From IMG/VR virus record IMGVR_UViG_2563366840_000014, positions 1 through 24,668 of that record: DNA of 24,668 bases; one strand, written 5' to 3'. The translations under genes and the position numbers were made by a program. This DNA is from a virus. Lineage: Duplodnaviria; Heunggongvirae; Uroviricota; Caudoviricetes. Position 1 is the stretch's first letter; every line of letters begins with the position of its first letter. The notes beneath the pieces are model-generated. The model was not told where the DNA came from, did no database searches, and saw only the letters and a program-made list of their open reading frames with translations. This document shows, piece after piece, positions 15,494-15,870 of the stretch.

Positions 15494-15522
15494 TTGCATT
15501 TTTCAAAAAATCTGGTTAGGAT
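15494..15522 (+). promoter_or_regulatory. Candidate late promoter (PR'-like)
   Basis: TTGCAT, 17-nt spacer, TAGGAT, directly downstream of Q and upstream of a terminator. Confidence 0.4.
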
Positions 15523-15572
15523 TTTCCTAACGATGGGCTTTGTATGTCTGCCGTTAACGAAATCATAACAAA

Positions 15573-15600
15573 CCTCGCTTCGGCGGGGTTTTTGCTTTTC
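15573..15600 (+). terminator. Rho-independent terminator (tR'-like)
   Basis: Imperfect GC stem CCTCGC / GCGGGG around TTCG loop, followed by TTTTTGCTTTTC. Confidence 0.6.
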
Positions 15601-15612
15601 TGGAGGTCAATA

Positions 15613-15870
15613 ATGCAGGGCGAAAAGCAGCAGCCATATTTTTTTAACCCTGGTATGACTGTTGAACAGCTTGAAGACTGGCTGGAGCAGCAAAAGCTTC
15701 ATCTAAGCCGCTATAACCGTCTGGTAAAAGAAAAAGCAGAGCTTGAAGAACGGCTCAGTGATATTTCTGTGGAAATTGAACGAATGTCTGCTGGTGGTTT
15801 TAACGGAAAGTTGAGTTTCCCTTGGGAGTCAAGTTCGCTTCTGAGAAATCATCAACAGGGTAGTGTTTGA
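15613..15870 (+). CDS. Hypothetical protein (85 aa) between tR' and the lysis genes
   Basis: Start at internal Met just after the terminator with GGAGG RBS at 6-nt spacing; charged, helical-looking sequence. Confidence 0.5.
   Translation: MQGEKQQPYFFNPGMTVEQLEDWLEQQKLHLSRYNRLVKEKAELEERLSDISVEIERMSAGGFNGKLSFPWESSSLLRNHQQGSV

Follow-up and report, generated by a model that had tools for sequence, protein, structure and literature searches.

A lambda-type late control cassette and the likely surviving half of a convergent gene pair in an SfV/ST64B-like Escherichia coli prophage

The IMG/VR record IMGVR_UViG_2563366840_000014, from a virus of the Caudoviricetes, carries a gene of 85 amino acids (aa) between its late terminator and its lysis genes, and the question raised by this locus is what such a gene is and why it stands there. 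We analysed positions 1 to 24,668 of the record, and this whole stretch of 24,668 nt is called the window below. The window is an SfV/ST64B-like Escherichia coli prophage, whose head genes are of the HK97 type and whose tail is contractile. An earlier note, made from the letters alone, had read the region as a late promoter, the terminator tR' and an unknown gene in a moron-like position. Our analysis keeps the late promoter, tR' and the genuine gene, but abandons the moron label and the comparison with lambda that went with it. That note had also omitted three features, namely a pause element, the remnant of a partner gene on the minus strand and an antisense terminator within the open reading frame (ORF). 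On the whole, we consider it likely that a lambda-type late switch is followed here by the surviving half of a conserved gene pair, the partner of which has been deleted in this prophage.

The window was compared with 88 related loci, giving 89 in all. L-numbers label the sequences compared (L002 is Salmonella phage ST64B and L003 is lambda). Positions 15400-16000 are 100% identical to several E. coli chromosomes (YD786, APEC O78 and others), and the full interval is present in about 101 of 5426 E. coli genomes; the scan of genome contigs returned a single locus only. The local gene order is KilA-N, DUF968/HNH, Q, the interval analysed here, two holin-family genes, a GH19 endolysin, Rz/Rz1, a second KilA-N, HNH and the terminase.

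The late control region after Q

The gene at 14710-15462 (plus strand) encodes an antiterminator of the Q-lambda family (PF03589, E 2e-54; PF00684), according to the assignment of PF03589 to Q-lambda, PF06530 to Q21 and PF06323 to Q82 (PMC9388147). It matches the lambda Q structure 7ubm in the PDB across both halves (E 1.5e-37). At 250 aa it is longer than lambda Q (207 aa), the surplus being an additional CXXCXGXG zinc-finger repeat of the DnaJ type between the two lambda-aligned halves. Q variants of 260-278 aa are seen in the relatives. Just 3' of the Q stop codon, the terminator-like scan and the lambda alignment give a small hairpin at 15470-15485 (plus strand), which has no U-tract. This hairpin is common to the window and lambda (L003, about 705-722) and shows a compensatory pair change between them, TCGCC..GGCGA versus TTGCC..GGCAA, with C-G here and T-A in lambda.

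The sequence TTGCAT-N17-TAGGAT, which the earlier note proposed as a promoter, does lie after Q. It begins 32 nt past the Q stop and occupies 15494-15522 (plus strand), with the -35 hexamer TTGCAT at 15494-15499, a 17-nt spacer, and the -10 hexamer TAGGAT at 15517-15522. The hexamers agree with the consensus at 7 of 12 positions, and the site is absent from the list produced by the consensus scan. It is identified by homology as the putative late promoter pR', because a Q-family gene stands upstream, the elements are in the lambda register, and the pause element is identical to that of lambda. Lambda Q loads at a sigma70-dependent pause element, AACGAT at +1 to +6. The window has this element, AACGAT followed by GGG (AACGATGGG), at 15529-15537 on the plus strand, identical to lambda at 9 of 9 positions and equally far from the -10 hexamer. 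In the ungapped alignment of window and lambda anchored on this shared nonamer, the identity is 4/6 for the -35 hexamer, 11/17 for the spacer and 3/6 for the -10 hexamer, and the interval of 6 nt before the nonamer is the same; overall, 29 of 44 positions are identical from -35 to +9. The pattern TANNNT-N6-AACGATGGG (15517-15537) occurs a single time in the window, with 0 occurrences expected by chance, and the pause motif is also present downstream of the Q gene in SfV, L061, L062 and L063. The 17-nt spacer would be the expected position of the Q-binding element. Judged by sequence, this set of elements is the homologue of the lambda pR' cassette, placed directly after Q, and by analogy with lambda we infer a transcript start near 15529 and a pause near 15544/15545.

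The hairpin terminator that the earlier note had placed ahead of the ORF is borne out as well. It is an intrinsic terminator at 15570-15600 (plus strand) with a 9-bp stem, a UUCG loop and a U-tract, reading AAACCTCGC-TTCG-GCGGGGTTT at 15570-15591 and then TTGCTTTTC to 15600. It is the top match of the terminator scan, with -13.1 kcal/mol and a z-score of -4.1 (0 of 200 shuffles fold as well), and lies about 41-72 nt past the inferred start, in the place of tR'. Nine divergent relatives have a hairpin at the same place, with -10 to -17 kcal/mol and a U-tract after each. Their loops vary (TTCG, CTTT, TATAT, AACC, AGTC and ACT), and a CC..GG pairing is replaced by GG..CC in L062. The MAFFT alignment of these terminators was out of structural register, so the hairpins were folded one by one and covariation counts were left out. 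From the positions of promoter and terminator, transcription in the absence of Q is predicted to yield a leader RNA of about 70 nt (15529-15600, plus strand), the counterpart of the lambda 6S RNA.

The cassette thus shares with lambda the Q family (PF03589), the place of the predicted promoter after Q, the succession of -35, 17 nt, -10, 6 nt and AACGATGGG, the intrinsic terminator, and the late and lysis genes behind it. Besides the length of Q, the two differ in the leader, which is 194 nt in lambda and about 70 nt here, and in what follows tR', since about 400 nt are untranslated in lambda whereas the first late cistron begins 12 nt after tR' in the window. The earlier note is therefore not correct in stating that the lambda holin gene directly follows tR': the terminator lies at about 44780 and S at 45186, with those 400 nt in between. 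By analogy with lambda, pR' would be constitutively active in a lysogen, and polymerase would pause near +16 and stop at tR', leaving the RNA of about 70 nt. Once the prophage is induced, Q would load at the pause, and polymerase would pass tR' and go on to transcribe the 85-aa gene and the lysis cassette.

The region is also compared with its closer relatives. The Q 3' end, the promoter and the early leader to 15555 (about the first 27 nt of the transcript) are 94% identical to SfV and about 90% identical to Stx2c phages, which by contrast have another tR', other downstream genes (orf47 and orf48 in SfV, stx in Stx phages) and no 85-aa gene. From 15570 on, ST64B has a homologous terminator, Shine-Dalgarno sequence (SD) and small gene, sb50, at about 80% nucleotide identity. 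However, ST64B has a different promoter and the antiterminator sb49, which has no Pfam match, and it keeps an intact partner gene and a second terminator before a lambda-S-type holin. Since the similarity of the Q-pR' block to SfV and Stx2c phages ends at 15555 and that to ST64B begins at 15570, the window is a mosaic in which a Q-pR' block adjoins a block made up of terminator and gene. As in SfV, a separate tR' ends the pR' leader of L061 and L063; an inserted gene comes next, and a second terminator then stands directly before the small gene. This position of the second terminator shows that the small gene travels with its own upstream terminator, and in the window that terminator doubles as tR'.

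The 85-aa gene and its convergent partner

The ORF with a well-spaced GGAGG was correctly described. The SD, GGAGG at 15602-15606 (plus strand), lies 2 nt past the terminator tail and 6 nt before the ATG, within the 12 nt (15601-15612) that separate the T-tract from the start codon, and CTGGAGG is conserved in the relatives. The gene itself, the first late cistron, extends from the ATG at 15613 to the end of the stop codon at 15870 (plus strand) and belongs to phrog_3501 (E 1.2e-54, residues 1-84 matching positions 1-84 of the 85 in the profile). The homology search suggested in the earlier note was run, and it finds the gene conserved. The ratio of non-synonymous to synonymous substitution rates (dN/dS) against the relatives is 0.12-0.35, with dS saturated, and in codons 8-37, where the opposite strand is featureless, 57% of the pairwise differences fall at the third codon position. 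Because of the full-length family match, the dN/dS values and the third-position bias, the 85-aa gene is regarded as a real coding gene. Another in-frame start, the ATG at 15544 that would give 108 aa, was rejected: it has no SD, and the profile and all homologues begin at its residue 24, which is the start of the 85-aa form. In ST64B, sb50 is annotated from an upstream start (119 aa) through the terminator, while it is the 85-aa start, together with its SD, that is conserved.

Homologues of the small protein form 59 clusters, all from Enterobacterales and all unnamed, and a profile search of 1.84 billion representatives finds only 32 relatives, all small and none multidomain. The conserved motifs are PYFFNPGM, ELEDWL, KEKAxLEERL and SFPW. 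The AlphaFold2 model consists of a single long helix at residues 17-60 (mean pLDDT, the predicted local distance difference test score, 77). The protein has no match in Pfam, NCBIfam or PADLOC; a profile search of the PDB gives generic coiled coils only, Foldseek of the model against viral structures gives nothing (E above 3), and a literature search for sb50 returns unrelated strain names only. An antiholin that binds holin in the manner of T4 RIII was considered and rejected, as the accompanying holin families vary.

The gene calls of related contigs were where a convergent gene of about 147 aa was first seen, on the minus strand and overlapping the 3' end of the small gene. With tblastn, all 89 loci give a minus-strand match to this partner, which is of full length in 36 of them, and the most distant locus, in Izhakiella, has a full-length partner though its small gene is only 48% identical. 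In the reciprocal check, loci retrieved via the partner likewise contain the small gene, again convergent and overlapping, and phage records with one gene of the pair also hold the other. The partner belongs to the ECs1072 family of phage-associated proteins (NF033230, E 6e-51; phrog_5286), and its model is all-helical with a pLDDT of 87. Foldseek finds nothing significant for it in the PDB; given a weak DnaA-domain-IV-like fold in the model, it could possibly bind DNA. An ECs1072 transcript has been detected in uninduced cultures of O157 Sakai (PMC2241611). Our literature search found no paper describing the gene pair. In the ST64B record, the ECs1072-family gene at 3225-3665 (minus strand) is unannotated in GenBank.

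The pair is interlocked in the relatives. The 3' ends overlap by about 65-90 nt, and the intrinsic terminator of the partner lies on the minus strand inside codons 38-48 of the small gene (VKEKAALEERL), about 40-60 nt past the partner stop codon, with -11 to -15 kcal/mol and followed by UUUUUCUUU. A second plus-strand terminator stands between the partner start and the holin, including in ST64B and L088. The pair is found downstream of antiterminators of the Q-lambda, Q21, Q82 and sb49 types, and upstream of holins of PF16931/PF05449, PF05106, PF04971 and PF16083 with several endolysin types, in many prophages of Salmonella, Klebsiella, Citrobacter, Enterobacter and E. coli.

In the window, an intact convergent gene of the ECs1072 family is absent, and only a C-terminal remnant is left. 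The remnant holds about the last 35 codons at 15800-15899 (minus strand) with an internal deletion of 63 bp, as seen in the tblastn match to partner residues 83-147 and in the alignments. It shares 71 nt with the 3' end of the 85-aa gene and matches no PHROG family. Two deletions can be told apart. The one common to the whole E. coli/Salmonella clade removed the first 80-90 codons of the partner, its upstream or promoter region and the pre-holin terminator, with the junction near 15899/15900, and the in-frame deletion of 63 bp is specific to the subclade of the window. The terminator of the lost partner is also decayed: at 15724-15756 (minus strand; codons 38-48, here VKEKAELEERL), it folds with only -3.6 kcal/mol and z -0.65, compared with the -11 to -15 kcal/mol of the relatives. 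Codons 42-43 are GCA GAG here and GCC GCC in ST64B, resulting in the change A43E. A second, independent loss of the partner is seen in a Citrobacter locus (L089, 4446-7061), where it is broken by insertion sequence (IS) elements and a reverse transcriptase of the group II intron type.

The small gene itself may show a trace of this loss. Variants within the clade comprise 11 non-synonymous and 5 synonymous changes, a site-corrected ratio of 0.56, whereas six neighbouring genes in the same loci have 0.09-0.20 (binomial p = 0.005 against the small gene), and a frameshift at the T-run of codons 9-12 is present in 4 of 50 loci. These comparisons suggest that the small gene has been less constrained after the loss of its partner, and the 85-aa gene of the window is probably a decaying leftover rather than cargo.

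A promoter-like site is present at 15852-15880 (plus strand), TCAACA-17-AATAAT with an upstream TG, matching at 9 of 12 positions and lying 70 nt before the holin start. It was created by the 63-bp deletion, because the deleted segment separates its two hexamers in the relatives. If active, it would allow transcription of the lysis genes independently of Q.

Weighing the explanations

Several points weigh against the explanation by a lambda-type switch and an orphaned half of a pair. At the promoter, the hexamers alone, with 7 of 12 consensus matches, are not above chance, and the lambda-type -35-like element ahead of the pause element is poorly matched (TTTCCT versus TGACTC in lambda). The signal of relaxed constraint comes from 16 variants in closely related, non-independent prophages, and the C-terminal 16 codons, perhaps simply freed from the former overlap, account for 6 of the 11 non-synonymous changes. 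Neither protein matches Pfam, a functional model of NCBIfam, a PADLOC model or a PDB sequence, and no consensus promoter was found for the partner. In addition, the sample for co-occurrence is biased, as the loci were fetched via the small gene or via the partner.

The label of the earlier note, by which the gene would be a moron acquired independently between tR' and the holin and serving the host or the lysogen, can appeal to its sporadic presence among similar phages, SfV lacking it despite nearly the same Q and pR', to a slightly lower G+C content (about 43%, with 46-52% in the flanks), and to the interval from Q to holin as a known insertion site, where Stx phages carry stx (PMC7547250) and L061, L063 and L088 carry inserts. 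A moron would be expected to bring its own signals, but no promoter of its own is found in the 12 nt between the terminator tail and the ATG, and no plus-strand terminator-like site is found at 15870-15950. Moreover, none of the 89 loci departs from this position, upstream terminator or partner, whichever of the three Q families precedes and whichever of several lysis cassettes follows, and expression behind tR' must be Q-dependent and late-lytic rather than lysogenic. We therefore regard the moron as very improbable. What the relatives do show is a set of genes inserted between the Q/pR' leader and the module of terminator and small gene: a STAND-type NTPase with a weak match to PADLOC PDC-S59 (L061, 1674-2882), a 92-aa protein without Pfam or PADLOC match (L063, 1078-1356), a protein with the Phage_pRha domain (L088-L090, 3236-3922) and a DUF6650 protein on the minus strand (L086, 3114-3860). 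Such inserts, and not the small gene, are the true morons or variable cargo in the relatives. That the ORF is no gene at all, its conservation reflecting the coding overlap, 3' untranslated region and terminator of the partner, is hardly credible. About half of it (codons 38-85) does coincide with functional elements of the minus strand in the relatives, but the third-position bias of codons 8-37 arises outside them, dN/dS is 0.12-0.35 albeit with saturated dS, the SD and start codon are conserved, and the family profile is matched at full length.

More of a case can be made for an autonomous late or lysis accessory protein, acting on lysis timing or on a host factor independently of the partner and fully functional in the window. 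In every case the gene opens the late operon, with the lysis genes directly behind it and a terminator shielding it; many E. coli genomes carry it intact and identical, and its N-terminal motifs are strongly conserved outside the antisense features. On the other hand, the holins and endolysins that accompany it come from several unrelated families, which makes a direct holin partner unlikely; relaxed constraint and frameshifts appear exactly in the clade without the partner, and phages of the SfV type manage without the gene. Such a function appears improbable to us on balance. A different proposal concerns the RNA of about 70 nt from pR' to tR', which might be the relevant product in the lysogen, as an Hfq-dependent regulatory small RNA (sRNA) like StxS. 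Promoters of the pR' type fire constitutively, and the RNA that they yield after termination can be an sRNA, as StxS is, the lambda 6S RNA has no assigned function (PMC7547250), and the RNA predicted here ends in a strong terminator with a U-tract. It would share with StxS and 6S RNA its predicted origin, constitutive pR' transcription ended at tR' in lysogens, but it has no sequence or Rfam similarity to them: no Rfam family matches the leader at gathering or permissive thresholds, the best being istR with 24.7 bits and isrJ with 18 bits, well below gathering. Besides, the leader beyond +27 is not conserved in other phages that share the promoter, and its fold has a z-score of only -2, driven by the terminator. 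An sRNA of this kind seems quite improbable, and is in any case compatible with the explanation by switch and surviving half-pair.

That explanation leads to a tentative picture of the intact module, about which we have more doubt than confidence. The lysogen would express the partner from the strand opposite the late operon, and the partner and that operon would silence each other, both by transcribing towards one another and by their antisense overlap. Upon induction, Q-driven convergent transcription would turn the partner off and the 85-aa protein on, and this small coiled-coil protein may act on the partner protein or together with it. In the window, late expression of the small gene would persist, but the need for it has probably gone. 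A further step, which we hold to be rather unlikely, is that the pair forms an undescribed switch module of enterobacterial lambdoid prophages, in which a partner expressed in the lysogen is silenced by Q-driven transcription and neutralised by the first late product. The layout recalls lambda oop/cII and P22 sar/ant, where two units also stand face to face with overlapping 3' ends at a decision point between lysogeny and lysis, the terminator of one inside the other. Unlike in those systems, both units are protein-coding here and the overlap is coding on both strands, so that the resemblance is one of layout only.

The lysis side and the meaning of the locus

Behind the junction, the holin leader occupies 15900-15949 (plus strand) by alignment with L061 and L078, the plus-strand terminator that precedes it in the relatives being deleted here. 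The lysis cassette follows at 15950-17676 (plus strand), with a holin of PF16931, a second holin-family gene of PF05449, a GH19 endolysin, and Rz with an embedded Rz1. The latter is an ORF of 67 aa at 17411-17614 (plus strand), in another frame within Rz (17215-17676), and its Cys, with a Pro-rich stretch behind it, fits the Rz1 lipoprotein subunit of the spanin; the RefSeq annotation of YD786 does not include it. Two KilA-N domain genes flank the region of Q and lysis genes, at 12890-13699 before DUF968/Q and at 17879-18409 after Rz (both plus strand).

Some RNA genes are also seen. In the window, STnc100 in the early region (7199-7421, minus strand, 49 bits) is the sole Rfam match at gathering score. 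Two loci of the Klebsiella/Enterobacter type match it more strongly, at 88 and 75 bits (L078, 3735-3926, and L057, 4702-4935, both plus strand), in each case in the space from the gene pair to the holin. In the Klebsiella group, a tRNA-Thr(UGU) stands 65 nt upstream of the small gene (L078/L069, about 2860-2940), with no terminator hairpin directly before the gene there, and arrays of three to four tRNAs are located between the pair and the holin in L057 (4034-4262) and L064 (941-1250).

As a whole, the regulatory cassette is known biology, while the gene pair is uncharacterised. The former adds a further clean example of lambda-type Q, pR', pause element and tR', and nothing new in regulation. 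For annotation, it supplies a transcript start near 15529, and supports the 85-aa start over the 108-aa or 119-aa starts of some records; records of the ST64B type also miss a gene. The pair, for its part, is strictly syntenic at the boundary between regulation and lysis, and its embedded terminator predicts a coupling of lysogenic and late expression. If the reading as a switch is true, the coding sequence of the antagonist would hold the terminator of its own target in the intact module, and the window would show the fate of such an antagonist once that target has been lost.

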